Positions 12,184 to 30,039 of a DNA stretch of 31,466 nt are shown here, piece after piece. The translations under genes were made by a program, and so were the position numbers. This stretch comes from a virus (lineage: Duplodnaviria; Heunggongvirae; Uroviricota; Caudoviricetes), in IMG/VR virus record IMGVR_UViG_2645727604_000022, one strand, 5' to 3'. Position 1 is the stretch's first letter. Each line of letters opens with the position of its first letter. The notes under the pieces were generated by a model. That model saw only the letters and a program-made list of their open reading frames with translations, was not told the origin of the DNA and ran no database searches.

Positions 12184-12202
12184 AATGGTGCCGATAATAG
12201 GA
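12184..12202. repeat. attL: 19-bp copy of the tRNA-Thr 3' end
   Basis: Identical to 30021-30039. Confidence 0.6.
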
Positions 12203-12263
12203 ACAATACACATAGGCGATAAGCTTTGTTTTTGTTGCCTTTTTTATTGTTCATTTTTTATAG

Positions 12264-12288
12264 ATACCCCCAAAAGTACCCCCATATC
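12264..12288. repeat. Tandem TACCCCCA half-site motif ATACCCCCAAAAGTACCCCCATATC, left-end copy (candidate integrase arm-type site)
   Basis: Near-identical copy (21 of 22 positions) at 29889-29913 in the same orientation. Confidence 0.4.
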
Positions 12289-12313
12289 TTTTTCCGCCCC
12301 TGAAATTTGGTTG

Positions 12314-12725
12314 TTATTCATACAGCATATCAGGCGGTAACGCTCTCCCTTTAACCCACTTATTGTATGATAGTGCTATCCCACAATAAGGAATCAGCCA
12401 GCCATGAGAATGACCAGCCGCAAAAAAGAGATACTTAGCTACTTTGAACCGGATAACCTCGAATGGGTGACTGGTGAGATTGGTGCGCCGCCCATAGTGG
12501 CGTGATTGCCGCGTTACCCATGCTTTCATCCTCACCCCATACGCGATACTCGCTACCTGGATCACCTTTACGCCCTTTCTCGAACATATACAGGTGTTCG
12601 TCATTCCAGCCAAAAGCTAACTGGATCACGGCATGAAGTTTACTAAAGGGGATTTGCTCTGGAACCAGCACACGCCGCCATATAGGTGGTTTGCTGTCTC
12701 GGATGGTTATCTTTAGCTGGTACAT
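12314..12725 (-). pseudogene. Frameshifted gene resembling the pRiA4b ORF-3-like family
   Basis: N-terminal frame MYQLKITIRDSKPPIWRRVLVP...AFGWNDEHLYMF continues in a second overlapping frame carrying YLFFAAGHSHGWLI; family assignment is from memory. Confidence 0.45.
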
Positions 12726-12845
12726 GCAAATCCTGAATAAATGCGAATCGGAAGGATAACGATACTGACGTACTCACAATTCTGTAAAGGTGAATAAAGG
12801 AAATTTGCTTAATACGCATAAGTTACATGTGGAATAATCCCATAT

Positions 12846-13031
12846 CTACCTGCGCGGCGCTGGCTTCTTCCACTGGTAGGCAGGTGCTCGCATCATTTCG
12901 CGGAACCTGTCGCGCCGGGCTATATCGGCATTAACTGATCGTTCTATCTCCCGTTGATCTGCCTGTGTAAGCTGATGGCCTCCGTGCTCAAGTTTGGCGA
13001 TGGTCAATAAGGCTATTTCGCGTGGTGTCAT
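12846..13031 (-). CDS. Hypothetical small protein (61 aa)
   Basis: ORF with SD AGAGGG 8 nt upstream. Confidence 0.35.
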   Translation of the reverse strand: MTPREIALLTIAKLEHGGHQLTQADQREIERSVNADIARRDRFREMMRAPAYQWKKPAPRR

Positions 13032-13328
13032 ACGTCATACCCTCTGGAAGAATGAAACACGCCCGGATTAAATTTCATTTTTCGCGGGTATAAAAAAACG
13101 ATGGGGCGGGCAGTCCCGGATAGTCAGGGCTGTAGAGATTTGACTACCCCCTCCCCACTGGATTCAGGTTACTGCTATTCCGTTAAGCGCTGCTTACGGG
13201 GATAGCTGCGTTGTGATTTTGACCATTCAGGTCGCCGCTATTTCCTCACCGATTGGGTGCTACGCGCGCGCGTACTTGTCCCGAAATACCAGAAACCGCC
13301 AGCCAGAGGATGATTTCCCTCTGGTGGT

Positions 13329-13610
13329 CTACCTTTGCCTCTTGCCGCCATTTAACCGGAAGGCGTTACCGTTCGGTTGCGCTATCCCCATGCGGTGTTG
13401 CGTTTCGGTAACAGCTTTATGCAGGTCGCCAAATTCCTCAACCTTCACGGGCGGGCGCTTCACGTTCTCCAGACACGTTTCACGGCGGCGCTTTATCCAT
13501 TCCCGATCATCGTCCTCGGTGCATAACAGCATGACTTCCATCCATCGTGCGGCAGCTCTCCGGTATAGCCCTTTTGACTCCAGCTCTTCAGCTTTCCTGT
13601 CCCTTATCAT
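13329..13610 (-). CDS. PerC-family-like small transcriptional regulator (93 aa)
   Basis: N-terminus MIRDRKAEELESKGLYRRAAARW resembles the PerC/Pch family as recalled; SD GAGAGG 7 nt upstream. Confidence 0.5.
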   Translation of the reverse strand: MIRDRKAEELESKGLYRRAAARWMEVMLLCTEDDDREWIKRRRETCLENVKRPPVKVEEFGDLHKAVTETQHRMGIAQPNGNAFRLNGGKRQR

Positions 13611-13640
13611 TTCTGCCTCTCAGATTATATAGATAAGCAA

Positions 13641-13770
13641 AAAGGTGTTGGTTCAGTTGGTTCAGTTGGTTCAATTTGTAAAGATTGTTGTTTTTATTGT
13701 GTTTTTTCTGAAATATTGAACCAACATCAACTCATTTTGAACCAACACAGCCCAGCTCTGAACCAACAAC
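13641..13770. repeat. Iteron cluster IR-L: three tight GTTGGTTCA repeats then three spaced TGAACCAAC repeats
   Basis: Reverse complement matches cluster 20679-20799, including a 43-bp perfect terminal match. Confidence 0.65.
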
Positions 13771-13869
13771 ACAGCGATAGATTTGTGATTGGTCCGTTAT
13801 TTTCTGGCTGATATTTGAGCGTATAACAGTGTTATACAGTGGTATACTGTATGGATATTACTCACTGAT

Positions 13870-14325
13870 ATGGTCTTTGCAATGAGCAAATCTAATCTGG
13901 TCGCGTTCCGCATCCCATCTGAATTGCAGGATGAGTTTAATCGGTCTGTTCTCGCTTCTGGAGGAGATAAAACCTCCTGGCTTGTTGATGCGATTCGCAT
14001 GAAGCTGGGGCAGCCGGAAAAGTCTATTGATTCACGAATGCTTGGGCTGGTGGAGCGCATGGAAAAAGCCGCTGCGTCGCTTATTGCCGGAAAGCCGAAC
14101 ATCCCACCAAAACCATATAACGAAACGGCAGTTATAAAGATCATTGCCGATACCATCCAACAGGGATTTGATAATGGGCGTGTGATAGCTGAACGGATCA
14201 ATGAAGCAGGCTATCAAACAAAAGCTGGTAAAGCGTGGGATAAAGATATTTACAGCGCGTGGAAGCGTCAGGGAAGCAATGCTGAAAAGCTAAAAGCAGT
14301 GATTGATTGTAAGGTCAGCGTATAA
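13870..14325 (+). CDS. Mnt/Arc-like ribbon-helix-helix domain protein with C-terminal extension (151 aa)
   Basis: RHH-like N-terminus SNLVAFRIPSELQDEFNRSVLASGGDKTSWLVDAIRMKLG; no clear SD. Confidence 0.55.
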   Translation: MVFAMSKSNLVAFRIPSELQDEFNRSVLASGGDKTSWLVDAIRMKLGQPEKSIDSRMLGLVERMEKAAASLIAGKPNIPPKPYNETAVIKIIADTIQQGFDNGRVIAERINEAGYQTKAGKAWDKDIYSAWKRQGSNAEKLKAVIDCKVSV

Positions 14326-14404
14326 ACATGAGTGCCCATTGGAAAGTTGCTTGGGCCAATACCTTTATACACCAGCAGGTAGTGACGATAGGTGAGGATC
14401 AGAT

Positions 14405-14626
14405 ATGAAAGGCAGAACGCCACACATTGAACATCAAGCCAACCACTTCCCTGATGTTCGCAATGAGATGATTGCCATTCGCGGTGATATGCACGGATTG
14501 GAGCGTCGAATTATTGATAAGATTGATGAAAATAGAGATAAGGCCAGTGAAAATCAAAAGTGGATCATCGGCCTGTTGATTTTATCAATTCTTATCCCGC
14601 TACTTATCGCATTGGTCACAAAATGA
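14405..14626 (+). CDS. Small protein with C-terminal transmembrane anchor (73 aa)
   Basis: SD GAGGA 9 nt upstream; C-terminus KWIIGLLILSILIPLLIALVTK. Confidence 0.5.
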   Translation: MKGRTPHIEHQANHFPDVRNEMIAIRGDMHGLERRIIDKIDENRDKASENQKWIIGLLILSILIPLLIALVTK

Positions 14627-15146
14627 ATATCCAATGTGTATGCTGTCGATGCTACGCGCGCGTACTTGTCGCAAAATATCAGGCAAAGGCCAGATTCAGA
14701 AAGTCGTGATAATCACCAGCACAACATGAGATGTCATGTAACGCGATTGATCACACCAGATACATGTGATGGTGTACCCGCATAAAACATCGTCATAGCG
14801 CGTCCTGTGCGCACATACGCCGATAATCAACACATCACCACCACTCTGTCTCGTGTAGAGAACAGTTTCATGGTATCCCCCGCCATCGTGTGCGTACTGG
14901 TCGGACGTGGTTGCAAAATTTTTGCAACTGATACCCCTCGCGCGCGTACTGGTCACGAAATTGGTGTTTTGCTGTGGCAGTGATATCAGAAAAATCTTCC
15001 TGTTTCACATAAAGCGGATATGCGCGTACTGTAACGACCCCATCAACGGGATCGGATTTGAAATCCTGACCCAAGCTATGTACCAAATGCCATGTCTTGG
15101 ATATATGATGATTGCCATTCTAAACAAAGCTAAAGGGAGGGTTGGT

Positions 15147-15503
15147 GTGAGGGGGCAGGCAGTTATAATTATTTTGTTGGGTTTAATTGTCGCAAAGTTA
15201 TACCCGACTTTATCGATGGTGTTTTTTGCCATTATTGGCGCAGCCATCTTTACTTATATCATTAAACATACCGCCTTGTGGTTCTATAAAATTGATATAG
15301 TTCAGAAGTTTGTACGTCCTGTGTCGATGTTATTACTAGCATTAATACCAATTGGTGTTGCTTATGTAATTGATGTTTTTTACCCTTCGGACACTGAAAG
15401 GTGGTTGATAGTTTTGTATTGTTATATTGGTGTAGCTCTCTTTTGTGGATTTCATTGGTGTTTCGAAAAGATCAATGACTCTATTTCAAAGAATAAAGAT
15501 TGA
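15147..15503 (+). CDS. AT-rich small integral membrane protein with four predicted TM helices; candidate immunity / superinfection-exclusion protein (ORF track frame opens at 14907; start here assigned to GTG 15147)
   Basis: SD GGAGGG 6 nt before GTG; four hydrophobic helices; about 37% GC on sampled lines versus about 63% in the adjacent 705-aa gene. Confidence 0.6.
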   Translation: MRGQAVIIILLGLIVAKLYPTLSMVFFAIIGAAIFTYIIKHTALWFYKIDIVQKFVRPVSMLLLALIPIGVAYVIDVFYPSDTERWLIVLYCYIGVALFCGFHWCFEKINDSISKNKD

Positions 15504-15517
15504 GGCCATCCGTGGCC
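15504..15517. terminator. Short hairpin between the convergent membrane-protein and 705-aa genes
   Basis: GGCCA-TCCG-TGGCC hairpin; weak flanking U-runs. Confidence 0.3.
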
Positions 15518-15522
15518 ATTCA

Positions 15523-17640
15523 CTAGTCATTATCTGGATCATTAGATAGCCAAGTAATGATGCCCAGTCTGGCGATGGTCCGTTTTTCCTGTTCAGGAAG
15601 AGAGTTAAAAAAACTCTTCCATTGAGGGGAGCGCCTGATACGTGAATCAACAATGTGCCCAGGCGCTTTTCCGTGTAGATTTTTTACTGCGCTCTGGAAG
15701 GCTGGCGAGGCAATTAATTTATCCGCAGCATCAGCCGCCCCTGCTCCACCAGCTAATCGAGCTTTACTCGCCAATCTTGCTCCAATATCAGCCCCAGCAA
15801 TGGCTCCAAGCGATCCAAAATGAGCGCCTACCATCGTGCCTATTTTTTGAATGTGTTTTGCTGCTAGTTCGTATGGAGCTGTTACCCGATTAAATCTGTT
15901 TACAAACTCATTCAGCTTACCAGTAGATATTTCATGCGCTTTAGCATTTTTTATTGCTCTGGCAACTTTGTATACATCATATAGTCCGCTCATTGTTTCT
16001 TTTGGCAAATGTTCAGCCAAAGTCTTTAGCTGTCCACTGTGTTGCAAGTTTTGCCACCAATCTGCAAAGCCAGATGGATTAAAGTCGGCCCCACGCTTCC
16101 CAGAGGAAAGCATATCTCTTAATGCTGTTCCTACTAGCTCCCTTCGCAATGTTCTTGATGGAGTATTTTGCATAATCTCACGAAACCCTCTCGCATCACC
16201 TTTTGCCATAGATTGAAGAGAATTCGTTACTTTATACGCTATATCCCCATTAAGTGTTTTCCCGCGAAGATTTACCATTTGCCTTTCTAAGTTTTTTCTC
16301 ATAGCTACAAGGCGTTGTGCGACTTCGAAATCTCGCAAGTATCCAGTATTGGATAAGACAGATTTTTGGTCTTCAGCTAAAGCTCCATATAGTCTTGATA
16401 GCGCTTCTTTATCAGCATCTTTGTATGGCCCCTGCTTTTTATTTAGGGCATCACCAACTAAACGCCTTTGCCTGTTTAAATTTGCATACGTTAGGATTCT
16501 ATCTGGGCCGGGGTTTATTGCTGTAAAAACTCGCTTTTCTATTGGGTCAAGATTATCCCACCCTCCTAAATCATCAGCGATTTTTTCCAGCATAGTGCTT
16601 GTGTTATTTGCTTCGACTTTTGTTCTTGGTGATAGAGCGGAATCAACACGTTTATATAACTGATCACTACGGTTTTTTAGTGCTTCCATTCTACTATTTA
16701 TCTGATAAATATATTTTTCGCTCATAGCTAACGCATCTGGCGCACCAGCAACATCATCGATTATCTTGCCAGCACTAGAGGCTAATTCGCTTATTGCTTT
16801 ATCTTCTTGAGCTTTTAACGCTGATCCTGTCCGTGACTTTAGGGCTTGCTCTACAGCTTGGTATTGCTCATTTCCTGATAAATGAGAAGGAAGAACTGAA
16901 TCAACATGAAGCCTATTTGCAGCCTCAACAATTTCTTTCTGAGGTTTTAGATCTAGCCCTTCAAGCGAAGAGGCAAGATTTGGGTTGCCTTGTGCAGATA
17001 ACTTACGAATTTTCTCTTCGGCAGGAGTAATCCCCTCAATATCTGGAATCGAAGAAACATTCTTCTTGGTTAATTTCCCAGCTATTTTATTAATTGCAGG
17101 GCCAGCAAGTTCGGCTACAGGGCCAGCCACAGCGCCAATAGCAGCGCCGGAAGCAACATCGCTATTTGTTCCATTGGCTACAATAGCCCCTTCTCCAGCA
17201 CCAAGCCCTGCGGCGGCAGCCAGTCTTGCCGCCCCTTTGGGAACCTGAGAAATAATCCCACCACCACTAACAAATGGCGCTGCTTGTCCAACGAACTCAC
17301 CAACATCTTGTGCGGTTGATGGTTTTGCCGCTAACTTCTGCTGTAGAGACTGAATTGCGGCTTGCTCTTCTGGTGTCATATCCTGAAACAGGCCAACACC
17401 TTTACCAACATCCATCAATCCACTGAGAACGCCATACATAAAACGGTCGAAACCGTTAGCATTATTAACAACATTTTCCTGTCTGGAATTTTCCTCTGGT
17501 GAAACCAAAGGTGATTGCTGCTGTTCTGGTTGGGCATCAAGCACAAAACCATCAGGAAGCTGTGAACTATCAGGAAACTGTGAGTTATCAGGTTGTTCAT
17601 CGAGCACAAAACCTTCCGGTAAGATTACATTTGCTGCCAT
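15523..17640 (-). CDS. Hypothetical large Gly/Ala-rich coiled-coil protein (705 aa), last gene of the LexA-box operon
   Basis: N-terminal repeats PEGFVLDEQP / PDGFVLDAQP, long Gly/Ala zipper segments, no P-loop or nuclease motif found. Confidence 0.75.
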   Translation of the reverse strand: MAANVILPEGFVLDEQPDNSQFPDSSQLPDGFVLDAQPEQQQSPLVSPEENSRQENVVNNANGFDRFMYGVLSGLMDVGKGVGLFQDMTPEEQAAIQSLQQKLAAKPSTAQDVGEFVGQAAPFVSGGGIISQVPKGAARLAAAAGLGAGEGAIVANGTNSDVASGAAIGAVAGPVAELAGPAINKIAGKLTKKNVSSIPDIEGITPAEEKIRKLSAQGNPNLASSLEGLDLKPQKEIVEAANRLHVDSVLPSHLSGNEQYQAVEQALKSRTGSALKAQEDKAISELASSAGKIIDDVAGAPDALAMSEKYIYQINSRMEALKNRSDQLYKRVDSALSPRTKVEANNTSTMLEKIADDLGGWDNLDPIEKRVFTAINPGPDRILTYANLNRQRRLVGDALNKKQGPYKDADKEALSRLYGALAEDQKSVLSNTGYLRDFEVAQRLVAMRKNLERQMVNLRGKTLNGDIAYKVTNSLQSMAKGDARGFREIMQNTPSRTLRRELVGTALRDMLSSGKRGADFNPSGFADWWQNLQHSGQLKTLAEHLPKETMSGLYDVYKVARAIKNAKAHEISTGKLNEFVNRFNRVTAPYELAAKHIQKIGTMVGAHFGSLGAIAGADIGARLASKARLAGGAGAADAADKLIASPAFQSAVKNLHGKAPGHIVDSRIRRSPQWKSFFNSLPEQEKRTIARLGIITWLSNDPDND

Positions 17641-18923
17641 TTTCCGTTCCTGTAAATGATTTTCTGACCAGTTTTAGGGTTGGTTGCCGTTGCGCCTTCT
17701 GATATTCCTCCGGTTGCCGCTTTTGCCTGTCCAGTGCCAGCCTGTGATGTAGGCTGCCCGGAAACATCGTCAAATAGCTTCGCTTTCCTTCTTTCAAGGC
17801 TTTTTCTTAGCCCCTGAGGAATAGTTTCTCCATATGTATCGAGATACTCGTCAACCTGCTGGTTAAACTGCTGCCCCATAGCATTGGCGTTGATTTTTGC
17901 GGCGTTAACAATGTTATCCTTTGCCTCCTGCGACAGGCCGTTTCCAGCATTAAGCTGGTCTATGTATCCTTTGATTTGTCCCCATATGCCATCAGACCGC
18001 ATTACCTGAACCTGTTCGCCTTCACGAACGACTGACTGCGGGTCAAGAGATTTCATGTAGTTGAAGATAATCCCAAGTTGGGCAGCGCCAGTATTTACCT
18101 TGCTAAGGGCTTGCAGAGAGTTTGCCGCCGCTCTGACAGAGTTATAATTTTTGCCAAAATTGGTAATGTCAGAATTTAATCCCTTAATTAAGTCTGCTGA
18201 CGGCTTACCTTTTTGCCCCAGCTCCATTAGCTTCAATCCCATCTCATCTGAGTGAATTTGTGCTCGCTGAGCCCTGTCTAGTTGAGCGTTCTGGATATTT
18301 GCCCATCCTCTCGCGTTCTCCATGTCAGCCTGACGCATACTTTCATCCAGTCGCCCTTGCTCAAGTCGACGACCTTCCATTTGATCTTTGATATCGAAAT
18401 ACTTCTCATGACCGAGAGAAAACAGTGCCATACTACCAGCAAGCCGCTGGAACCCCTGTGGATCATTAACATGCATTTCGGCAACAGACTCAGGAGAAAT
18501 TCCCAAGCGACGCATTTCATCTTCGTTATCTGCTATGAATTTTCCAAATGCCCCAGTTCCGAGCGAAGATGCGATTTGAGCACTAGTCGCAAGATGACCA
18601 ATAGAATTTCTCTGGTCGTCATCAATAAAGCCCATCCCTTTCTGAACGCTTTCAAATTCTTCTGGATACTCAGAAATAAGACTGCGCATTTTGTTTCTGT
18701 CTCCAGACTCAAAAGCCCCGGCATATGCTTTCTGAAACTCTGCTTTACGCTGTTGTTGACGTGCCTGCTGATTAATCTCAGCAACGCCTCTTAGCCCCTG
18801 TAGCGCCATTAAACCTACGTTTGGCTGCTGCTGATACTGCACAGGCTGAGGAACGGAAGAACGAGGAGCATTATCATTTTGCGGTGCCATGCTAGGCAGC
18901 CCGCCAAGTTGCCATGTCGCCAT
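17625..18923 (-). CDS. Hypothetical coiled-coil protein (432 aa)
   Basis: Q-rich N-terminus; overlaps neighbouring genes by a few nt (translational coupling). Confidence 0.75.
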   Translation of the reverse strand: MATWQLGGLPSMAPQNDNAPRSSVPQPVQYQQQPNVGLMALQGLRGVAEINQQARQQQRKAEFQKAYAGAFESGDRNKMRSLISEYPEEFESVQKGMGFIDDDQRNSIGHLATSAQIASSLGTGAFGKFIADNEDEMRRLGISPESVAEMHVNDPQGFQRLAGSMALFSLGHEKYFDIKDQMEGRRLEQGRLDESMRQADMENARGWANIQNAQLDRAQRAQIHSDEMGLKLMELGQKGKPSADLIKGLNSDITNFGKNYNSVRAAANSLQALSKVNTGAAQLGIIFNYMKSLDPQSVVREGEQVQVMRSDGIWGQIKGYIDQLNAGNGLSQEAKDNIVNAAKINANAMGQQFNQQVDEYLDTYGETIPQGLRKSLERRKAKLFDDVSGQPTSQAGTGQAKAATGGISEGATATNPKTGQKIIYRNGKWQQM

Positions 18924-19600
18924 TAGAATCCAAGCCCCCCAACAAGACCAATAAGCCCACCACCAATAGCGCCGGCCGCAGTTCCTATTCCAGGAACAAC
19001 GGAACCAAGTTGCGCACCCGCTAAAGCGCCTGATGCTGCCCCACCAATACCACGCGCAAGACTGGATGGCTGCTGCGCCTGACCTGCACGAATAGCGCCA
19101 AGCCCCTGCAAGAGTTGTCCGGTATTATTGGCGTAGTTTTGCCCTGCCGTTGCCTGCCCTGATGCCGCATTCATCCCGACATTTAGCAGGTTTCCATAAT
19201 TTTGCATTTGCCCACTAAGCCAATTGTTATAAAGCATGGGCGCAATGGAAGATAACTGGTTACTGGTAGCTGTTGAGCCAAGCCCCCCGGTAGCTTCTGC
19301 TGAGACAAGGTTCTGATAACGGGCCTGATCTGCCTGTGTTTTATATAAACCAGAACCAAAGAAATCATTCGCGGCTTTATTCTGCCCTTCCAGAGTCATC
19401 AGTCCTTGTAGTTGTTGTAAAGCAGGCAATCCGACTTCTGCATACGGCTTGAGATTATTCATCACCGTATTCCACTGCTCGCGCTGCAAATCAATTGCCT
19501 GCTGCTGGGCCTTCGCCTGAGCTTTAGAGGCACCACCATCACCGCCTTTTTCGTATACGGCACGATTGAGATGTTTATGAGCTATATGGGTAATTAACAT
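18923..19600 (-). CDS. Hypothetical protein with extremely Gly-rich hydrophobic C-terminus (225 aa)
   Basis: C-terminus GIGGAASGALAGAQLGSVVPGIGTAAGAIGGGLIGLVGGLGF. Confidence 0.7.
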   Translation of the reverse strand: MLITHIAHKHLNRAVYEKGGDGGASKAQAKAQQQAIDLQREQWNTVMNNLKPYAEVGLPALQQLQGLMTLEGQNKAANDFFGSGLYKTQADQARYQNLVSAEATGGLGSTATSNQLSSIAPMLYNNWLSGQMQNYGNLLNVGMNAASGQATAGQNYANNTGQLLQGLGAIRAGQAQQPSSLARGIGGAASGALAGAQLGSVVPGIGTAAGAIGGGLIGLVGGLGF

Positions 19601-20055
19601 TCGCTGAATTCCTTATATTGTTGCCGAGTTAACTGATAAAGCGTTACGCCGACGGGTTTACCACATCTGATATAAGCATCATCAAGGTGACCAACACGGG
19701 TAGCGCCAAGCAAACGGATAATTGCCCGTCCGTATTTCGTGGTGTCAGGAACCATAGTGATGCTGTTAAGGAATGGTGAGTTTTCGAGAAGCCATTTGCA
19801 GAATAATCGATGTCCTTGCAGTGCATATTCACCACGGAATCCGGGGTCGTACACCGCATGGCATTCAACAACGCTATGCCAGAAGTTACGCACTTCATGA
19901 ACGCCAGCCAGCACTAATCCTTCGTAGATGCCGAGATATACCGCATCAGGCTTGATGTAGTACGTGTGCCCCGGCTCAACAATATTTTCGGTATTGCCTG
20001 GCTCGTTAAGAAAGGCCTGTAATCGCACAGGGTTATCAATAAATTTTAGTTCCAT
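19594..20055 (-). CDS. Hypothetical protein (153 aa)
   Basis: ORF coupled to downstream genes; no diagnostic motif (GNAT motif looked for and not found). Confidence 0.7.
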   Translation of the reverse strand: MELKFIDNPVRLQAFLNEPGNTENIVEPGHTYYIKPDAVYLGIYEGLVLAGVHEVRNFWHSVVECHAVYDPGFRGEYALQGHRLFCKWLLENSPFLNSITMVPDTTKYGRAIIRLLGATRVGHLDDAYIRCGKPVGVTLYQLTRQQYKEFSEC

Positions 20056-20071
20056 GCGATGCCATCCATTT

Positions 20072-20233
20072 TCACATACAGCCTGCCAGCGCCTTATCTA
20101 TTAACCCTCGTGCAATTTCATGCAGAGTTGGCGCTACTCCAATTCCTGATTTTTTACGCTGCTCTTCCTGAATTTTCTTTATCGCTTCCATTTGCTTCTC
20201 ACTTATCAATACCGGCTTTACTGAAATAGCCAT
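20072..20233 (-). CDS. Small RHH-like putative regulator (53 aa), first gene of the operon; not in the ORF track
   Basis: Hand translation MAISVKPVLISEKQMEAIKKIQEEQRKKSGIGVAPTLHEIARGLIDKALAGCM; GGGGG 5 nt before ATG. Confidence 0.45.
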   Translation of the reverse strand: MAISVKPVLISEKQMEAIKKIQEEQRKKSGIGVAPTLHEIARGLIDKALAGCM

Positions 20234-20248
20234 AACGCCCCCTTAGAA

Positions 20249-20264
20249 CTGTATAAAACAACAG
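20249..20264. promoter_or_regulatory. LexA-type SOS box CTGTATAAAACAACAG, immediately downstream of a perfect TATAAT (20267-20272, minus strand)
   Basis: Matches CTGT-N8-ACAG with an AT-rich spacer; sits 16-31 bp upstream of the RHH start codon; only such box found in the window. Confidence 0.45.
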
Positions 20265-20678
20265 TTATTATAGTTTCACAAATCGCAATATTCATCATCG
20301 TAATTGCAAAATATGAAACAAATAGCACAAAAAAATGCCACCGCTCAGTAGCTGGTGGCATCGTTCTGTGTGTCAGGTTTTGACAGGTTTTTTATGGACT
20401 CTAAAAACTATATTTATGGTGTCGCATTACTCTTCACGGCAGGCGCTTTTCAGTTCTGCCCTTGCTTCTGGCTCCATTGGTAATTTGATTCGCGATCAGC
20501 TATGCGGATGGTTTGCTGAACAGGCATAACAACTTCTCAGAGGCTGTTTTCTGAACTACGAAAATTTCGTAGTGCTCACTTTCAAAAACGTCACGCCCTT
20601 GTACACAGGATTTTACGAAAGTCTCGTAAAACACTCTCTGATGCCAGCCAGGTGTTGTGCGCATCAATTCAGTCACAT

Positions 20679-20799
20679 TGTGTTGGTTCAAAATACCGTG
20701 TTGTTGGTTCAGTGTTGGTTCAATAAAAAGAATAAAATCCTTATAAAACAATACTCTTTACAAATTGAACCAACTGAACCAACTGAACCAACACCTTTT
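20679..20799. repeat. Iteron cluster IR-R: inverted partner of 13641-13770, 19 bp downstream of the primase-helicase stop
   Basis: Three spaced GTTGGTTCA then TGAACCAACTGAACCAACTGAACCAAC. Confidence 0.65.
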
Positions 20800-20817
20800 C
20801 TACGCACATGAAGAAGC

Positions 20818-23577: not shown

Positions 23578-23932
23578 CGTACCCCACGTGGTCTATAGCG
23601 TTTGCGATATGGCTAACTAGCATCTGCCACTTGGTTATTCCGTAATCAGTCAGCATGCCATCATTGTTTAGCCACATATCAAATTCAGCGGTTGTCGCAA
23701 GTTTCCACTTATCGCCGTGGACAGTCCTCATTGCTGGGTACATGAATGCGCAAATCAGATCACAAACATCTGACGGCTTCAGAGATGTAGTAATGGTGCG
23801 TCCCTCTGGCGTCTGAATTGCCATTTTCTCTTCACCAGTAGAATGAAGGTTATGAATCCACACAGCACCAGCAATCTTTGCCACCTGCTCTCCGATTGCG
23901 GAGCTAAGCGCCATTTCTACATTTTCACGCAT
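23561..23932 (-). CDS. Hypothetical protein (123 aa)
   Basis: ORF overlapping the primase start (coupled). Confidence 0.55.
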   Translation of the reverse strand: MRENVEMALSSAIGEQVAKIAGAVWIHNLHSTGEEKMAIQTPEGRTITTSLKPSDVCDLICAFMYPAMRTVHGDKWKLATTAEFDMWLNNDGMLTDYGITKWQMLVSHIANAIDHVGYGDAKH

Positions 23933-24266
23933 GAGAACCTCCCGCTACAGTTGCGCCCATGTCATTAACCATGCTTTGCCATATCTCACGCCCGACGTCA
24001 GTCAATCTGTCCTTAGTGACGCAACGATCAAGAAGCTCGATCCCCACGGTTTCCCACTGCGGGTAGAACACTTTCATGGCTGCCAGTGCGTAACTATCGA
24101 TCAGGCTGCGAACGCCTTTTACTCCATTGACGATTTCCACACGGACGGCCTCTCCGTCCGCATCAATCATGAAATAGTCCCCGCCGCTGGTGGAGGTAAT
24201 GTGGTTATACAGTGCTGACGCATACTTATTTGCCAGCGCATTCAGTCGGAAATTTTTAGTAATCAT
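23925..24266 (-). CDS. Hypothetical protein (113 aa)
   Basis: ORF in the coupled gene chain. Confidence 0.55.
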   Translation of the reverse strand: MITKNFRLNALANKYASALYNHITSTSGGDYFMIDADGEAVRVEIVNGVKGVRSLIDSYALAAMKVFYPQWETVGIELLDRCVTKDRLTDVGREIWQSMVNDMGATVAGGSHA

Positions 24267-24276
24267 GGCTCCATCC

Positions 24277-24879
24277 TCAGTGCGTCACTGGTTCCGCTGG
24301 CATGCCGTTTTCATTCAGTTCAGCTATAAAGCTGTTGTGAAGTTCAGCAAGCGTTTCACGACCAAATGGAGTCAGTGCTCCTTGTTCCACATCCATCATG
24401 GCTCTGTAGAAAATGATGGCGCGTTCTGTGCCAGACTCGATGCCAAAACGTTCTATCATCGCGCCCTCAATGTTGTTTGCCATAGCGAGGCGCTCTGCTA
24501 CTGGATACAGCGGCATGGCGACGATGCCGTTGGAATAAACAGCCACTTCGGAAGGATTGCCAGTATCATCAATGATGCTGACAGTGCCGTTTTCCTTTCT
24601 CATTTCATTGATGAATGCTGTTGCTATCAGCCAGCGCCACATAATCACGTGATGCTGTGATGTGTAATCGAAATATCCCTGGTTGCCGCCACTGGCAATA
24701 GCGAGATGTATAAACATGCCTTCATCTGGTTTATCGTCATAATCCCCGGCATCCAGACGATTTACGGCATCAATATATGAGACGGTCTCAACGCGTTCTG
24801 TCATGCCATCGTTGCTGCGGTACATGATGTTTACGCCGTCAGGCGTTGCTTCTGCATGGAAAGTTAAGAAATTATTCAT
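24277..24879 (-). CDS. Hypothetical protein (about 200 aa; start assigned to internal ATG 24879 rather than ORF-track 24984)
   Basis: GAGG 6 nt before ATG 24879; 8-nt overlap with the upstream gene. Confidence 0.5.
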   Translation of the reverse strand: MNNFLTFHAEATPDGVNIMYRSNDGMTERVETVSYIDAVNRLDAGDYDDKPDEGMFIHLAIASGGNQGYFDYTSQHHVIMWRWLIATAFINEMRKENGTVSIIDDTGNPSEVAVYSNGIVAMPLYPVAERLAMANNIEGAMIERFGIESGTERAIIFYRAMMDVEQGALTPFGRETLAELHNSFIAELNENGMPAEPVTH

Positions 24880-25093
24880 GTTTCGCCTCGCCTGAATGAT
24901 TCTGTAACTCATATTTGCCCAACAATTCGTCTGCTTCCTGAATAGCTTCTGGTACGCCATTGAGCAGTGACATAACCGCGCCAATCATTAACTTGTCTCT
25001 GTTGCTGGGGCTGGCCCCTTCAAGCCAGAACCCTAAAACAGTCTGAACCTGTTCGATGCGACATTGCGCTTCAATGAGCTGGATGTTGGTCAT
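24872..25093 (-). CDS. Hypothetical small protein (73 aa)
   Basis: ORF in the coupled gene chain. Confidence 0.45.
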   Translation of the reverse strand: MTNIQLIEAQCRIEQVQTVLGFWLEGASPSNRDKLMIGAVMSLLNGVPEAIQEADELLGKYELQNHSGEAKHE

Positions 25094-25353
25094 TTCGCAC
25101 TCTCCACATCGATTAAACCGATATCTATCAGGGAGGTAACTTTTTGTAGCCAGCTATTGATTACTGTCGCCTGTTCCCCTCCCACCGAGGGAACAATCTC
25201 ATTCATCACATGAACCAGACCTGTGCGCGCTCTGGTAAGCCGTTCAGTCGCGCAATCTGCGGGAGTGAATGTGTCTGGATATGGCTCTTCGCGCCCCAGC
25301 AATGATTCAATTTCCAGCTCACACGGATGACGATAAATTAAGTTGATATTCAT
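25090..25353 (-). CDS. Hypothetical small protein (87 aa)
   Basis: ORF in the coupled gene chain. Confidence 0.45.
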   Translation of the reverse strand: MNINLIYRHPCELEIESLLGREEPYPDTFTPADCATERLTRARTGLVHVMNEIVPSVGGEQATVINSWLQKVTSLIDIGLIDVESAK

Positions 25354-25544
25354 TTTTCACCCCCAAGAATTACCAGCTCGGCACGGGCATCGTTAACCAA
25401 AGATGAGCACGCTTTAATCGCATCCACGACATCAGCAGCGTCCATTTCTTCAGCCGAAAGACTGACAGCAACCAGGACAGCCGCTGCTTGCTCGATTAAT
25501 TGAAGTGCGGACGTAAGGCGAGGGGTATTAATTGAGTTATTCAT
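25350..25544 (-). CDS. Hypothetical small protein (64 aa from ATG 25544)
   Basis: GGGGG 6 nt before ATG; 8-nt overlap with the upstream gene. Confidence 0.45.
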   Translation of the reverse strand: MNNSINTPRLTSALQLIEQAAAVLVAVSLSAEEMDAADVVDAIKACSSLVNDARAELVILGGEK

Positions 25545-25755
25545 TGGTTGCCCCCGTTTTGCATGGCATTTGTCCACCTTCCAGCAGGAAATGAACGTCA
25601 CGAACGGCGAGATCCAATATCGCGAGTAACGCCTTCAGTCTTTCGTCTCGTGAGGGAGAGTTGCTCACCAGAATGTCGTTAATCACTTCTGTCAGTGTGA
25701 TGATCTGGCTTGTGCGTTCGAGGGGATCCATATGCACATCGTAGGTTTTAATCAT
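25537..25755 (-). CDS. Hypothetical small protein (72 aa)
   Basis: SD GGAGG 6 nt before ATG 25755; lies in the C-terminal frame of the 342-aa track ORF. Confidence 0.45.
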   Translation of the reverse strand: MIKTYDVHMDPLERTSQIITLTEVINDILVSNSPSRDERLKALLAILDLAVRDVHFLLEGGQMPCKTGATNE

Positions 25756-25942
25756 GTGCCACCTCCATGCGGATACGACCAGCAAAAAAGCAGATGTGAT
25801 CGCGCACCAGAGAACGGCGAGCATCGCGTTCAGACTCGGCAGCAATATGATGAATTTTGGCGGTAATTGTCGGGCAATCGCGGCGAACTGCGGCGATAAT
25901 CCAGATAAATTGCGGTTTTTGGGTAGGGGTAGTAGCCAGCAT
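25748..25942 (-). CDS. Hypothetical small protein (64 aa), first gene of the coupled chain leading to the primase
   Basis: Strong SD AAGGAGG 7 nt before ATG. Confidence 0.5.
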   Translation of the reverse strand: MLATTPTQKPQFIWIIAAVRRDCPTITAKIHHIAAESERDARRSLVRDHICFFAGRIRMEVAHD

Positions 25943-26099
25943 GTGGCAGCCTCCTTGATTGATGTTTTATAGCCACCGCCGGAGGTCCTAAGCTCGCTGG
26001 CGGTGGACTGTACAGGGTTAGGACTACTGGCAATCAAGGAAACCAGCCTGACCGAAGTCAGCCCCATACAGCCCACCATTGATAAGGTGTGCGTGTGCG

Positions 26100-26230
26100 C
26101 CGATACAAAAAAAGACGCTGGCGCGTCATGTATCGCCTCGATTGCCTGCGGGGTCCTAATCCCGGCACCCGTTTTATGAGGTGCCTTATAACCATAAACC
26201 GTGTTGCCGCATAACGGCAAGCTCTTTTTT
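26100..26230 (+). ncRNA. Candidate structured small RNA ending in an intrinsic terminator
   Basis: Hairpins GACGC-TGGC-GCGTC (26114-26127), GGCACC-N10-GGTGCC (26164-26185), terminator TTGCCG-CATAA-CGGCAA followed by CTCTTTTTT (26204-26230). Confidence 0.3.
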
Positions 26231-26565
26231 ATGGACTCCGAAAACTCACTATTGGAAGAACCAGAGGCACAGTACATCGCGCTCATTTCGTTAACGTCGC
26301 GCGTGCGGACGAAGATTTTTGTGGAGTCACTACGCGAGCAGAACAGGTCATCTACGACCAGAAATTCTCTGGCGCAGCCGCTGACCTTCTCAACGCTAAC
26401 ACCATCGACCGTAATTTCTGACATAGTTAAGGCATCCGCTCCTACCACCATAAAATGATAAGCTTTGCTTGTATCTGCTGTATTAATGCCAGACTTTGCT
26501 GTCATATTGCTGGATTTTTGCGACATAGCAGTCAGTGAAAATATCTTCTTCTGGACGGTTAGCAT
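26170..26565 (-). CDS. Protein-like N-terminal part of the ORF starting at 26565; 3' end unresolved (frame stays open to 25537)
   Basis: SD GGAGG 7 nt before ATG 26565, coupled to the upstream gene; the first ~130 codons look protein-like, the following codons read like translated structured RNA; the 26170 end is arbitrary. Confidence 0.3.
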
Positions 26566-26741
26566 TTGTTAACCTCCGCGAACTCCTTCATGAAGCGCGC
26601 CAGCGGTTGTACGCATGGCGATTGATACCCGTCGCGATAAAACGTCACTCGGTTGTGAGACACGCTTTCGACAGTAACGAGTGCTCCGTGGGCATCTTTG
26701 TAGCGTTTTTGAGGTTGTGGTGTTCCTGTCGGCTTAAACAT
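26559..26741 (-). CDS. Hypothetical small protein (60 aa from ATG 26741)
   Basis: SD GGAGG 6 nt before ATG; start overlaps the AntA-like stop. Confidence 0.4.
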   Translation of the reverse strand: MFKPTGTPQPQKRYKDAHGALVTVESVSHNRVTFYRDGYQSPCVQPLARFMKEFAEVNKC

Positions 26742-27567
26742 GGACCGCCTCCAGACGCTTGGCGAGCCAGCGTTGCGACAGGCGGGTGAGTTCTCCTTTG
26801 CGCTGCTCATATTCCATGCCCATATCAATTAACGTGATATTGGTGCTTTCGAGATATGAGAGGTGCTCAAGCTGTTCTGCGTTCATATGGTCGCGAGGTT
26901 CGCCAGAATAGCCATTTATCCGCGCCCACTGCTTAGCAGTTAGCCCTCCAAGAACGATACGAGAAATCATATTGCTCTCGTTTGTGTAGTGGTGTTGCTG
27001 CGTCGTTTTCCCCTGCTCGGCACGGGCCATATTCAGCGCATCGCACATTGGCTTAAAGTTGTTTGCGGCACTGATACGGGCTTTTAGCTGGCGACGATAG
27101 CGGGCGGCGATTTCAGGCACGCTACGCTGTAATTCTTCCTCGCACTGGATGAAATAACGACGGATAGCGCGACCCTGATCATTGCGTTCGATCATTGCCA
27201 GCTCTTTCGCCATTCCGACACTTAACAGATAGTCTTTGCCGGGTCTGCCAGACTGCTTAATCTTGCTGTAAGCCGTGCCATTCGGGCTTTTCCCCAAATT
27301 TGGGGAAATTGTTTTATGGACTGAGTAATCGTGCCCAATGGTGAAGTCATATTCAGAGATGCGATCAGTGATCCATGTAGAGAAGTCTTTTCCCACGCCC
27401 AACGCTTTGTGTAACGCTTTTGCGCTAACAATATTGGTTTCACGCCCACCGATGTGACCAGGAATAACCGGGACAATTGCGGCAAATTCATTACCGTTAA
27501 TTGTGCCCAGAGAGGCGTTCAGATGAGGGGCGGCCTCAGAAATTAATCTGCTTTTTTCGATGTTCAT
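26734..27567 (-). CDS. AntA/AntB-type antirepressor-like protein (277 aa)
   Basis: N-terminal segment SAKALHKALGVGKDFSTWITDRISEYDFTIGHDY matches the AntA domain pattern as recalled. Confidence 0.6.
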   Translation of the reverse strand: MNIEKSRLISEAAPHLNASLGTINGNEFAAIVPVIPGHIGGRETNIVSAKALHKALGVGKDFSTWITDRISEYDFTIGHDYSVHKTISPNLGKSPNGTAYSKIKQSGRPGKDYLLSVGMAKELAMIERNDQGRAIRRYFIQCEEELQRSVPEIAARYRRQLKARISAANNFKPMCDALNMARAEQGKTTQQHHYTNESNMISRIVLGGLTAKQWARINGYSGEPRDHMNAEQLEHLSYLESTNITLIDMGMEYEQRKGELTRLSQRWLAKRLEAVHV

Positions 27568-27579
27568 TTTCAGTCTCCG

Positions 27580-28011
27580 TTAGGCGGCGTTAAACGCGTC
27601 CGGGTAGAGTTTCAGAATGTCGGCAATTTCCTGCTGAGAAAGTCCGTTGTGATCATTTATGTTCGCAAGATGGTTAATATGAGTGATCACTTTCAGAACA
27701 TCACCACGGCAGGAGAAACGGTAGCGAAGGTGTGTTCCGATACCATCAGGATTCTTTTCGTCGATACGCTCCAGAGTGATTCCAAGCTGGCGTTCTAACT
27801 CTGTTGCATAGTTACGACCAGAAGACAGACGGCAGTAGCGAAGAATGTCATTTTCTGTCCATCCCTCTATACCAGTACGCAGCATATAGACTCTGGCACG
27901 ATGCTTTTTCGGTGTGCGCTTTGGTGCTTGAAGGGATTTTGTAAGGGGCGTAACATCAGATACACGAATATCTGAATTAGCCGCCTGTAATGGGCGGTTT
28001 TTCTTTTCCAT
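27580..28011 (-). CDS. Hypothetical putative DNA-binding protein (143 aa)
   Basis: ORF coupled to alpA (ATGA overlap); basic N-terminus, HTH-like segment RLSSGRNYATELERQLGITL. Confidence 0.5.
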   Translation of the reverse strand: MEKKNRPLQAANSDIRVSDVTPLTKSLQAPKRTPKKHRARVYMLRTGIEGWTENDILRYCRLSSGRNYATELERQLGITLERIDEKNPDGIGTHLRYRFSCRGDVLKVITHINHLANINDHNGLSQQEIADILKLYPDAFNAA

Positions 28012-28214
28012 CAGGCCACCTCGTCTCTAGATTCTAATATACACTTCTCAATCCATTCATCTATTTCAGACTCAACAAAAGCAATTGCCCGACTTCCAAT
28101 TTTTACCTGTTTAGGGAACCTCCCCTGACTAATAAGACGATAAATCCATGCTTTGCTATAACCAGTTCGCCTTTGAACTTCAGAGAGACGAATTAATGAA
28201 TTGTAATTAGCCAT
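28011..28214 (-). CDS. alpA: AlpA-family excisionase / transcriptional regulator (67 aa)
   Basis: LIRLSEVQRRTGYSKAWIYRLISQGRFPKQVKIGSRAIAFVESEIDEWI matches the AlpA pattern. Confidence 0.8.
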   Translation of the reverse strand: MANYNSLIRLSEVQRRTGYSKAWIYRLISQGRFPKQVKIGSRAIAFVESEIDEWIEKCILESRDEVA

Positions 28215-28436
28215 TTATTAATATCCTGTACTAATGACGCAATAACCCCCTCCTGCAACGAATGGCGAGAGTTTTATTTGCGTCAAATGTCGAATACGCC
28301 AAAGACCACAATATGAAAAACATATTGCGGTCTTTTATAAAAGATAGTCAGATTGTTTTGGTTTGTTCGCTCCACAAGGGTAGAGCTACCCTGCATTTCG
28401 GCAGGATCACGCTATTAGGCGTGACATCCAGTAGTT

Positions 28437-28499
28437 TTAAAGAACAATTGCGCTTTGTCAGCGCCAAAGCCTGTTAAAGAACATTCCGCTTTGTCAGCG
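28437..28499. repeat. Two direct 26-27-bp repeats TTAAAGAACA(A/T)T(T/C)(G/C)CGCTTTGTCAGCG between int and alpA
   Basis: Copies at 28437-28463 and 28474-28499. Confidence 0.3.
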
Positions 28500-28642
28500 A
28501 CGTAGAAGGCTCAATACACCTTCGTTTATAAAAGAGCGATTGCCCTTCTCCAGGGCTAACTGTTAAATAGCAATCCTCTGTGAGTTTTTATCAATCTACT
28601 CCCCTATACTTTAGTAAACCTCTGTATACTTGTCCAGTTGTT

Positions 28643-29857
28643 TCATGCGTGTTTTTCAAACACCATATGCACCACATTTCCGCCATGCTCGAGAGAATCC
28701 ATATAGTCGGCATACCATTGAAGCATCTCCCGCCTTCCATCCAGATATTGCGCATGGTTGTATGTGCCACGAATTGAGTTCTTATCAACGTGAGCGAGCT
28801 GCGTTTCTATCCACGCGGTGTTATAGCCCTGCTCATGCAAAATCGTACTCATAGTGTGCCGGAACCCATGACCAGTTACACGTCCAGCGTAGCCAATGCG
28901 CTTAAACACTTGGTTTATGCTGGCCTCACTCATTGTTTTCCTTGGATCATTGCGCCCGGGAAACATAAGAGGGTAATTGCCTGTTATTTCTCTAATCTTC
29001 CCAATAAGCGAAAGAGCCTGATCAGACAATGGCACAATATGAGGCCGCCGCATTTTCATACGTGAAGCGGGTATCTCCCAGATAGCCTTGTTGAAATCAA
29101 TTTCATCCCATAATGCGCCACGTAGTTCGCCAGTCCGCAAGCCGGTGATAATCAGTAGACGAGCCGCCATAACAACCAATGCGCTTCCTGAGTAACTGGA
29201 CAATGCCTTGAAAAAATCAGGTAATTCTTTAGCTGTAAGGAAAGGGTAATGATTAGATTCATGGCCTTGCATCGCGCTAGTAAGGTCTGGTGCAGGGTTA
29301 TACTCTGCGCGACCAGTGACTATTGCATAGCGGAAAACTTCCCCGCACCGCTGCCTCACTTTTTTGGCTTTTTCTGTAGCACCGCGCCCCTCGATGCGCC
29401 GCAGCACATTCAGAAGTTCAAGTGGTTTGATTTCGGCGATTGGTTTTTTGCCAATGTAAGGGAACACATCTTTGTTGAAGGCTTCGAGGATGTCTGAAGC
29501 ATAACCAGCAGACCATTTTTTTAATTTGCTGCTGTGCCACTCAAGGGCAATATCTTTGAAGGTGTTGTTTAACTGCGTTTCCCGGGCAATCTTTTCCTCT
29601 CGTTTCGCTTCCATCGGATCGATACCACCAGCGATACCTCTTTTCGCATCTTCACGTTTTGCCCGAGCATCGGCTAGAGTAACCTCAGGATACACACCTA
29701 GTGCCAATAGCTTCTCTTTACCAGCTACACGATATTTAAGTCGCCAGTATTTACCTCCATTAGGTTTTACCAAGAGATACAAACCGCCACCATCGGCCAG
29801 CTTGTAAGCCTTCTCTTTTGGCTTGGCTGTGTCTATTTGACGGGCATTGAGTTTCAC
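28643..29857 (-). CDS. int: P4-type tyrosine integrase (404 aa)
   Basis: N-terminus MKLNARQIDTAKPKEKAYKLADGGGLYLLVKPNGGKYWRLKYR typical of tRNA-targeting P4-like integrases; catalytic HGFRHT and Tyr region near the C-terminus; adjacent to tRNA. Confidence 0.9.
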   Translation of the reverse strand: MKLNARQIDTAKPKEKAYKLADGGGLYLLVKPNGGKYWRLKYRVAGKEKLLALGVYPEVTLADARAKREDAKRGIAGGIDPMEAKREEKIARETQLNNTFKDIALEWHSSKLKKWSAGYASDILEAFNKDVFPYIGKKPIAEIKPLELLNVLRRIEGRGATEKAKKVRQRCGEVFRYAIVTGRAEYNPAPDLTSAMQGHESNHYPFLTAKELPDFFKALSSYSGSALVVMAARLLIITGLRTGELRGALWDEIDFNKAIWEIPASRMKMRRPHIVPLSDQALSLIGKIREITGNYPLMFPGRNDPRKTMSEASINQVFKRIGYAGRVTGHGFRHTMSTILHEQGYNTAWIETQLAHVDKNSIRGTYNHAQYLDGRREMLQWYADYMDSLEHGGNVVHMVFEKHA

Positions 29858-29888
29858 TTGGGGGTACCTCCACTAAACCGAACAGCAA

Positions 29889-29913
29889 ATACCCCCATAA
29901 GTACCCCCATCTG
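29889..29913. repeat. Tandem TACCCCCA motif ATACCCCCATAAGTACCCCCATCTG, right-end copy (candidate arm-type site)
   Basis: Partner of 12264-12288. Confidence 0.4.
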
Positions 29914-29922
29914 ACCGTAGAT

Positions 29923-30005
29923 TTTGAGGGACTTTAGTAGACGTCAAAAGACGAACGGGGCTTTAATACGCGGATTATAAGGGGTTTTGAAAGACTTTAG
30001 TAGAC
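29923..30005. repeat. Two direct 21-bp repeats TTTTGA(GG/AA)GACTTTAGTAGAC between int and attR
   Basis: Copies at 29923-29942 and 29985-30005. Confidence 0.4.
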
Positions 30006-30020
30006 TTGGGGAGATGTTTG

Positions 30021-30039
30021 AATGGTGCCGATAATAGGA
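30021..30039. repeat. attR: 19-bp core overlapping the 3' end of tRNA-Thr
   Basis: Identical to 12184-12202. Confidence 0.6.

Follow-up and report, generated by a model that had tools for sequence, protein, structure and literature searches.

How many mobile elements occupy the thrW gene of Escherichia coli in the DNA analyzed here, and how did they come to lie next to each other? The window, namely the whole stretch of 31,466 nucleotides that was analyzed (virus record IMGVR_UViG_2645727604_000022), is the E. coli proA-thrW region, with the proBA-thrW gene arrangement (the tRNA gene, then proA). An earlier interpretation made without database searches, here called the sequence-only reading, had described a duplicated tRNA 3' end with repeats inside it and had proposed that two unrelated elements used the same tRNA gene successively. 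All of the sequence features that it described were found where it had placed them. Our comparison with other genomes indicates that the window is a tandem array of two independent integrative elements, A and B, both recombining with the last 17–20 bases of thrW, an interpretation to which we assign a probability of roughly 0.88.

Two independent elements at thrW

The gene thrW, encoding tRNA-Thr(CGU) (30023–30098, minus strand), is the sole tRNA gene called in the window by ARAGORN and was also recognized by Rfam. The core 19-mer AATGGTGCCGATAATAGGA, which combines the last 17 bases of the tRNA (CCA included) with two downstream bases, occurs in exactly two copies. One lies within the intact tRNA gene (the proximal att core, 30021–30039, plus strand), and the other is a displaced copy of the thrW 3' end (12184–12202, plus strand), which forms the A/B junction and the distal att core of B. 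No further match was found in the window at up to 3 mismatches, and shuffled sequences gave an expectation of 0.00. The duplication 17.8 kb apart that had been claimed is thus exact. The name attL given to the copy at 12184 does not hold, since convention puts attL at the integrase- and tRNA-proximal junction.

Element B (12203–30020, 17.8 kb) is bounded by the exact 19-bp repeat. Element A measures 12.27 kb between its cores, and positions 1–12183 of the window contain all of it but the last 86 bp and the left att copy. The GC content is 38.9% in A (left of 12184), 47.2% in B (between the cores), and 54% in the proA flank. As expected of tRNA-gene islands, an intact tRNA gene at one end is matched at the opposite end by a direct repeat of its 3' portion, and both elements carry a tyrosine integrase gene beside one att junction: that of B lies 163 bp from the core, and that of A starts approximately 140 bp from the left core of A. 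The two integrases are alike only in the catalytic domain, with 24% identity, in agreement with the earlier supposition that the elements are unrelated.

In a megablast comparison with 5,426 complete E. coli genomes, the two parts of the window were each found to recur independently. Copies of A with more than 94% identity and covering at least 80% of its length were present in 202 of them. In strain 20KM2762, A is alone at thrW, with a core copy on either side. Element B is alone at thrW in A20, with the yagU-side flank to its left; in NCTC9040, with a CP4-6-like island to its left; and in MP1, with the vat island to its left. The order A-B-thrW of the window, with three core copies, was observed in the loci L007 and L106–L114, and the reversed order, B-A-thrW, in MS 85-1. 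The junction consisting of a P4-type int arm, the core, and the left end of A was matched with at least 80% coverage in 72 genomes, and the A/B junction was present in 9–12 genomes.

The comparison with unoccupied thrW strains that the sequence-only reading had suggested was also informative. A synthetic empty site, in which the yagU-side flank and thrW were joined at the core, gave uninterrupted 460-bp alignments with 99.3% identity to other E. coli, and the empty site was found at a coverage of at least 80% in up to 2,107 of the 5,426 genomes. Unoccupied sites in related genomes therefore consist of the flanks joined at the core. The same reading had made its case depend on a second att copy for A outside the window, and this copy exists. 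The contig JHSB01000005.1 (GCA_001265765.1) is 100% identical to the window over positions 1–15322 and extends further left, where the end of a third core copy, TGGTGCCGATAATAGGAGT, lies 86 bp to the left of window position 1. Core copies accordingly flank A in this contig, as they do in 20KM2762, MS15052, and the array L007.

A single composite island moving as one unit, with the core copy at 12184 being a relic or a chance match, was weighed against these data. The A-B array recurs at more than 99.8% identity in several assemblies, so it is inherited as a block at least. However, A and B are each found alone with precise core-bounded ends, the reversed order B-A exists, each element owns an unrelated integrase, and zero chance matches are expected for the core. 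We therefore rejected the composite island, which we regard as highly improbable: the elements occur alone, both orders exist, and so do empty sites. With A-only, B-only, A-B, B-A, and empty sites all found, the proposal that two unrelated elements used the same tRNA gene is supported. The array represents known biology, namely island accretion at the thrW hot spot, with an EcCIMP1-type island carrying a P4-type attP. EcCIMP1 is a 19,963-bp island at the tRNA-Thr gene between proA and yagU in E. coli MP1 (PMC11773190). Excision and circularization of this near-identical relative of B were demonstrated by PCR and sequencing (PMC11773190).

Core variation and order of arrival

The perfect 19-bp repeat of the window is an exception, as nearly all related copies have a distal core lacking one C. 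This shortened core of B (AATGGTGC-GATAATAGGA) was found in MP1, A20, NCTC9040, and the arrays L007, L106, L110, L113, and L114, and it is kept regardless of the left neighbor. The full CC is carried by the window, the identical contig JHSB01000005.1, and one complete genome (CUWW11). As the deletion travels with B into differing contexts, it must sit in the attP of B, and from this we infer that strand exchange by B takes place to the left of the indel, within AATGGTGC. Sister arrays 99.9% identical to the window carry the deletion, and therefore the perfect repeat of the window is probably a secondary 1-bp restoration. The deletion in the MP1 distal core also explains why the EcCIMP1 authors reported just a 10-bp repeat, TCCTATTATC (PMC11773190).

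Concerning the order of events, the array would have been built by successive integration, with B integrating into the intact tRNA gene after A. That B entered after A is most likely on three grounds: only the intact tRNA gene offers a complete attB, arrays of either order (A-B and B-A) are found, and a later prophage lies between A and thrW in strain MS15052. In the reversed order, B would have come first, and A would later have used the displaced distal core of B as a secondary attB. The final junctions are identical under either order, and the single-base differences between junctions fit both. Moreover, the left core copy of A in A-B arrays has CC and the A/B copy usually has a single C, which is compatible with strand exchange by A to the left of the indel. 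However, the distal copy is without tRNA sequence to the right of AGGA, while the repeats of A itself reach AGGAGT; the MS15052 prophage fits a pattern in which the newest element is the proximal one; and the existence of B-A-thrW arrays demonstrates that the intact tRNA gene is a target of A. Arrival of B first is thus possible but unlikely, and entry of B after A is preferred.

In MS15052 (30470–30520 of its locus), the right junction of A keeps a 50-bp thrW fragment reaching up to the anticodon loop, followed by the lambdoid prophage. This arrangement indicates that thrW also serves a third kind of element, whose core is longer.

Attachment arms of element B

The near-identical motifs that had been described inside both ends of B were recovered as doublets of the form ATACCCCCA(A/T)AAGTACCCCCAT, with a 12-bp period. 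The distal-arm doublet (12264–12285, plus strand) lies 62 bp from the core, and the integrase-proximal doublet (29889–29910, plus strand) lies 110 bp from it. An inverted third copy (29859–29866, minus strand) overlaps the ribosome-binding site and start codon of int. The 8-mer TACCCCCA within these repeats has five copies in the 31.5-kb window, all in the two arms of B (plus strand at 12265, 12277, 29890, and 29902; minus strand at 29859), compared with 0.45 expected, and none of 100 shuffles reached five. In A20, the distal doublet keeps its sequence and its distance from the core, although the spacer has diverged.

The conservation of these repeats was evaluated in 79 loci encoding relatives of the B integrase, from 98% down to 61% identity, in other Enterobacterales (L008–L086), all read in the orientation of the integrase. 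In nearly all of them, a tRNA gene lies approximately 165 bp upstream of the integrase gene, and the targets differ by lineage (Thr-CGU, Gly-CCC, Arg-UCU, Arg-CCU, SeC, Ser, and Phe). Of 78 loci, 74 had a 7-mer doublet with the exact 12-bp period, in most cases some 50 bp ahead of the start codon. An inverted copy was found at about −8 in 58 of these 74, and in the others, all three copies lie further upstream. The 7-mer falls into the classes GGGGGTA (as in B), GGGGGCA, GGGGGCC, and TGTATAG, with all three copies changing together. Within the 200 bp upstream of each integrase gene, the triplet and a second motif (GTCTAC/GTCAAC, described below) both hold their place relative to int while the tRNA target changes. 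The distal end was within reach in five elements (L028, L029, L037, L042, and L075), and in all five, a doublet stands 55–65 bp away from the displaced core. Its class is that of the proximal doublet except for single-base differences, and this applies to the rare GTGTATAG class as well.

The same geometry is annotated in phage P4. The GenBank record (NC_001609) labels doublets at 3942–3965 and 4151–4174 as "attP arm sequence repeat", with an inverted copy over the int start (3915–3926) and the core at 4078–4097. The doublet-to-core distances are 112 and 53 bp in P4, compared with 110 and 62 bp in B. The integrase of B (404 aa, GTG start; 28643–29857, minus strand) is 42% identical to P4 Int and shares its three-domain composition, with an arm-binding (PF13356), a central (PF22022), and a catalytic domain (PF00589). 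Element B thus contains the parts of a P4-type integration module, namely a three-domain integrase, arm doublets to either side of the core, and an inverted repeat copy where int starts. On this comparative basis, the attachment region of B appears to be a split P4-type attP, whose TACCCCCA doublets are the counterparts of the classical arm sites of P4. That the arm repeats co-vary is strong evidence, from comparison, that they are read by the cognate integrase. In the proposed mechanism, the N-terminal arm-binding domain would bind the TACCCCCA doublets on both arms, the C-terminal domains would act on the core, and the inverted TACCCCCA copy over the start codon would allow autorepression of int.

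A second conserved motif class lies on the integrase side only. As the sequence-only reading had noted, two 21-bp direct repeats (29922–29942 and 29985–30005, plus strand) are located between the integrase gene and the tRNA-side junction. They contain the motif GTCTACTAAAGTC, are identical at 19 of 21 bases, and have a chance expectation of zero. A partial third copy of the motif, AAATCTAC, lies on the plus strand just upstream of the first repeat, beside the doublet. The GTCTAC-type motif is conserved in homologous loci and switches in concert to GTCAAC in some lineages. By analogy with the TorI sites in the attL of KplE1 and with the repression of P4 int by Int and Vis, we assign these repeats to AlpA: they are probably sites of this excisionase rather than arm sites of the integrase, and AlpA would bind them on the integrase side and thereby direct excision. 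The earlier term "arm-type repeats" consequently stands for the TACCCCCA doublets, which show the P4 geometry and co-vary with the integrase lineage on both arms, and not for the 21-bp repeats, which belong to a different motif class.

The two assignments might also be exchanged, with the TACCCCCA repeats being operators, for example of AlpA, or elements of the int promoter, and the GTCTAC-type repeats being the true arm sites. An inverted copy on the int start would suit any repressor, and both motif classes co-vary with lineage. However, doublets are also present in the distal arm, where no int promoter is near, and there their distance and orientation are conserved and they co-vary with the proximal ones; in the P4 record, the homologous repeats bear the label of attP arm repeats; and a heterobivalent integrase needs sites on both arms, the B integrase having PF13356. 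We consider the exchanged assignment quite unlikely and retain the doublets as the candidate arm sites. The arm and accessory repeats are now defined across the P4-type integrase family and offer ready predictions for experiments on binding and specificity.

Gene content of element B

Read from thrW, the gene order of B is integrase, AlpA, a 143-aa protein, antirepressor, a DUF4222 protein, Ash/Icd, small open reading frames (ORFs), primase-helicase, gp14-gp7-gp20-gp16, cargo ORFs, PerC, and a pRiA4_ORF3-like gene. The AlpA-family regulator/excisionase (PF05930; 28011–28214, minus strand), the AntA/AntB antirepressor (PF08346; 26734–27567, minus strand), and a zinc-ribbon/Toprim/DUF927 primase-helicase of 919 aa (20818–23577, minus strand) precede a P22-type cassette (15523–20055, minus strand). 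This cassette, with matches to PF11039, PF25688, PF16928, phrog_770, and phrog_6704, consists of homologues of gp14 (19594–20055), gp7 (18923–19600), and gp20 (17625–18923) and a gp16-like ejection protein (15523–17640), which is 40–63% identical to those of the P22-like phages Sf101, APC_JM3.2, and Kapi1. The PerC-family regulator (PF06069) is encoded at 13329–13610 on the minus strand.

The MP1 locus has 98–99% DNA identity to the window over 12184–13747 and 18763–30100. Accordingly, the proteins of B and EcCIMP1 are nearly the same for the integrase (403/404 residues), AlpA (67/67), primase-helicase (99.5%), gp14 (98%), gp7 (98.7%), and PerC (100%). The identity falls to 38% for gp20, and BLASTP gave no match in EcCIMP1 for the gp16-like protein. 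Relative to EcCIMP1, the segment 13748–18762 is replaced, comprising cargo ORFs, the gp16-like gene, and most of the gp20-like gene. Element B has int, alpA, and primase/replication genes in conserved order and, within the 10–20 kb size range, no capsid, terminase, or lysis genes, in agreement with the annotation of homologous copies, as is characteristic of EcCIMP1-type phage-inducible chromosomal islands (PICIs). Therefore, B is a new allele of a known, experimentally validated type of phage-inducible island. A P4-like satellite was rejected as an identity for B, as sid, psu, delta, and epsilon were absent from Pfam and PHROG scans of its ORFs and from the annotations of homologous copies; what B and P4 have in common is limited to the integrase, AlpA, an Icd-like gene, and a primase of the alpha type.

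Excision of EcCIMP1 needs int and alpA, and with the P22-like phage Kapi1 as helper, the island excises, replicates, and is transferred at high frequency (PMC11773190). By analogy, induction and packaging of B would depend on a P22-like helper phage. The genes that flank the segment 13748–18762 are 98–100% identical to those of EcCIMP1, and other copies of B have Abi, SieA-like, or lytic-transglycosylase variants at this segment. This suggests cassette exchange, which may track helper phages, and the swapping of gp20/gp16 ejection genes among EcCIMP1-type islands hints at the tracking of different helpers.

Several other features of B were observed. A 28-nt repeat, CGCGCGCGTACTTGTC..., occurs in three copies (13265–13292, 14655–14682, and 14939–14966) that bracket the variable cargo segment and may mark the limits of modules or act as terminators. 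The 430-bp gap separating int from alpA contains a pair of 17-bp direct repeats, ATTGCGCTTTGTCAGCG (28447–28463 and 28483–28499), which may be operators of the alpA promoter region. Rfam placed a C4 antisense RNA (25996–26083, minus strand; 80.2 bits) and the isrK small RNA (26108–26184, minus strand; 63 bits) above the gathering score. They lie side by side within an ORF annotated as Ash family, adjoining the Icd-like gene, and resemble an ImmI-like module of P1/P7. PADLOC found no known defense genes in the cargo of B or in A.

The following points weigh against the account of the array given so far. The activity of A and B in this strain is inferred, and the order of arrival is not readable from the junctions alone. 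The perfect 19-bp distal core of the window departs from its relatives and is only partly explained by a secondary restoration. A scan of the spacer between thrW and int for sigma-70 consensus promoters and for terminators found neither, and the assignment of the two motif classes to Int and AlpA, which draws on sequence comparison, could be the reverse. Finally, the pRiA4_ORF3-like gene of B is truncated.

Element A and its phage relatives

Element A had been treated as background in the sequence-only reading, and it is the only part of the window with real potential for novelty. Its 425-aa tyrosine integrase (58–1335, plus strand; PF00589, PF20172 (DUF6538), and PF13102) is encoded at the thrW-distal end. 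It is followed on the minus strand by genes for a Dit-like protein, a homologue of tail tube initiators (1417–2130; PF21821); a tape-measure-like protein of 608 aa (2165–3991; phrog_16051); a major capsid protein (4294–5322; PF03864); and a replication-initiator-like (O-like) helix-turn-helix protein (7426–8115), which has PHROG matches to replication initiators and O-like proteins. Four tandem 22-bp iterons, TAGCTCAYAGTGAMCTACCCCC (9760–9844), stand in the middle of a 2.3-kb ORF-free stretch (8543–10440) and probably constitute a candidate replication origin. A serine recombinase of the DNA invertase/resolvase type (10441–10980, plus strand; PF00239 and phrog_125), a 67-aa protein, and five small proteins without assigned function complete the element.

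Among GenBank phages, the DNA of A matched only short stretches of lytic coliphages of approximately 146 kb, the phi92-like Stephanstirmvirinae. Over positions 8117–8346, the identity to phage inny is 98%; the Dit and tape-measure genes have, in parts, 71–91% DNA identity to phi92-like phages. At the protein level, the Dit-like protein is 60% identical to the tail tube initiator of Justusliebigvirus phages, and the major capsid protein is 22.6% identical to that of inny over the full length. The tape-measure-like protein is collinear with the 659-aa tape-measure protein of inny, with 53% identity over the first 66 residues and 27% thereafter. The replication initiator is 34% identical to inny_184, and a 55-aa protein is 100% identical to inny_185 over 53 residues. 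The genes of A are in phage order with the intervening genes missing, and the GC content of A (38.9%) matches that of the phage (37.4%), unlike that of E. coli.

These data led us to propose, tentatively and at somewhat less than even odds, that A represents an undescribed satellite family parasitizing lytic phi92-like myoviruses (Stephanstirmvirinae) in E. coli. As a satellite, A would excise on infection, replicate from the iteron origin, and build chimeric virions with its own capsid protein, tail-tube initiator, and a tape-measure protein 51 residues shorter than that of the phage. The PLE satellites of Vibrio cholerae have been reported to put tape-measure, chaperone, and hub proteins of their own in place of those of ICP1, giving chimeric tails that are shorter (PMC12987554), and A shows the corresponding features, namely homologues of a helper-type tape-measure protein and tail-tube initiator, a Rep-like protein, and iterons. 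A capsid-forming PICI was rejected for A because, of a capsid module, only the major capsid protein was recognized: portal, terminase, protease, sheath, and tube genes were not found in A with Pfam, PHROGs, and NCBIfam.

Alternatively, A may be a decayed prophage remnant or a defense island that keeps an integrase, rather than a helper-dependent satellite; we hold this to be a serious possibility, although short of an even chance. The lack of terminase, portal, sheath, and tube genes suits such an origin, and decoy tape-measure or hub proteins could act purely by interference with tail assembly. In addition, a viral-contig scan with the capsid protein of A returned only prophage calls from isolate genomes, a result that says nothing on packaging. 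However, all ORFs of A are intact and conserved at 94–96% in the 202 genomes, the element has precise ends at two different sites, and it has its own replication initiator and iterons. Further, it retains collinear, full-length homologues of three structural proteins that all belong to one phage group, with matching GC content, the pattern seen in the chimeric tails of PLE (PMC12987554). A literature search for satellites of Stephanstirmvirinae, or for E. coli satellites with capsid and tape-measure genes, found nothing relevant. An exact-protein contig look-up for A returned chromosomal contexts only, with no 12-kb circles.

The second site of A is srsR, and near-identical A integrases in different copies target either thrW or srsR. 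In NCTC10973, a 95%-identical copy of A lies within srsR (11900–24350 of locus L002), flanked by a 51-bp duplication. The integrase of this copy differs mainly by clustered substitutions at residues 161–209, which may represent a natural switch of target specificity between thrW and srsR. Two further observations concern the right part of A. Positions 11020–11062 (43 bp) are 95% identical to a non-coding, repeat-rich region of inny (138625–138667) and to many related phages, and this shared stretch may act in cis, for example as a promoter or in packaging. TAAATA(C/G)CC repeats, with four direct copies at 11220–11261 and inverted copies at 11099–11125, are located about 1 kb from the right end of A, downstream of the invertase gene.

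Comparison with known systems

The array agrees with the Islander/TIGER concept of accreted tRNA islands, in which several islands share one tRNA gene and thrW is an E. coli hot spot (PMC7545054, PMC4383910). In both, an intact tRNA gene lies at the end, and displaced 3' fragments mark each boundary. Nothing essential differs, and in the present case, the same two elements are recorded in either order. The window is therefore a clean, fully resolved case of island accretion at a known hot spot, with little that is new as so stated.

Element B shares with EcCIMP1 the site, att arms, integrase, AlpA, primase, antirepressor, gp14, gp7, and PerC. In MP1, EcCIMP1 likewise adjoins a second island at thrW, the vat island, as B adjoins A. 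The two differ in length (19.96 versus 17.8 kb), in gp20, the gp16-like gene, and cargo, in the truncation of pRiA4_ORF3 in B, and in the distal core, which lacks one C in MP1 and is a perfect 19 bp in B. With P4, B has in common a core formed by the 3' end of a tRNA gene, doublets of 12-bp period in each arm, and an inverted copy that overlaps the beginning of int. The target is leuX in P4 and thrW in B, the repeat class is GGGGGCA in P4 and GGGGGTA in B, and the sid/psu/delta capsid-hijack genes and P2 helper dependence of P4 are absent from B.

In the IntS/TorI system of KplE1 and in P4, an attL overlapping the int promoter and double repression by integrase and excisionase have been established (PMC2951348). 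In both KplE1 and B, int is transcribed away from the tRNA gene, so that the recombination arm and the int control region overlap, and arm-type and excisionase sites (predicted in B) stand side by side in the interval between the tRNA gene and int. The integrase lineage, the motifs, and the tRNA gene (argW in KplE1) differ.

Concerning A, the closest likeness is to the PLE satellites, whose helper is the lytic myovirus ICP1 (PMC12987554). Both are small and integrative, have their own replication functions, and encode diverged helper-type tape-measure and baseplate-hub-type proteins, the tape-measure protein of the satellite being the shorter. They differ in that A has a tyrosine integrase and PLE a large serine integrase, and hence A is not a PLE relative by descent. 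Moreover, A adds a capsid-protein homologue, in which it is more like SaPIbov5 Ccm or the capsid-forming PICIs than PLE. The candidate helper of A is a phi92-like coliphage in place of ICP1. Element A is thus a good candidate for a satellite that exploits large lytic coliphages, which are in use in phage therapy collections; if this is true, it would matter for phage resistance and gene transfer, and A would be the coliphage counterpart of the PLE/ICP1 system of Vibrio.

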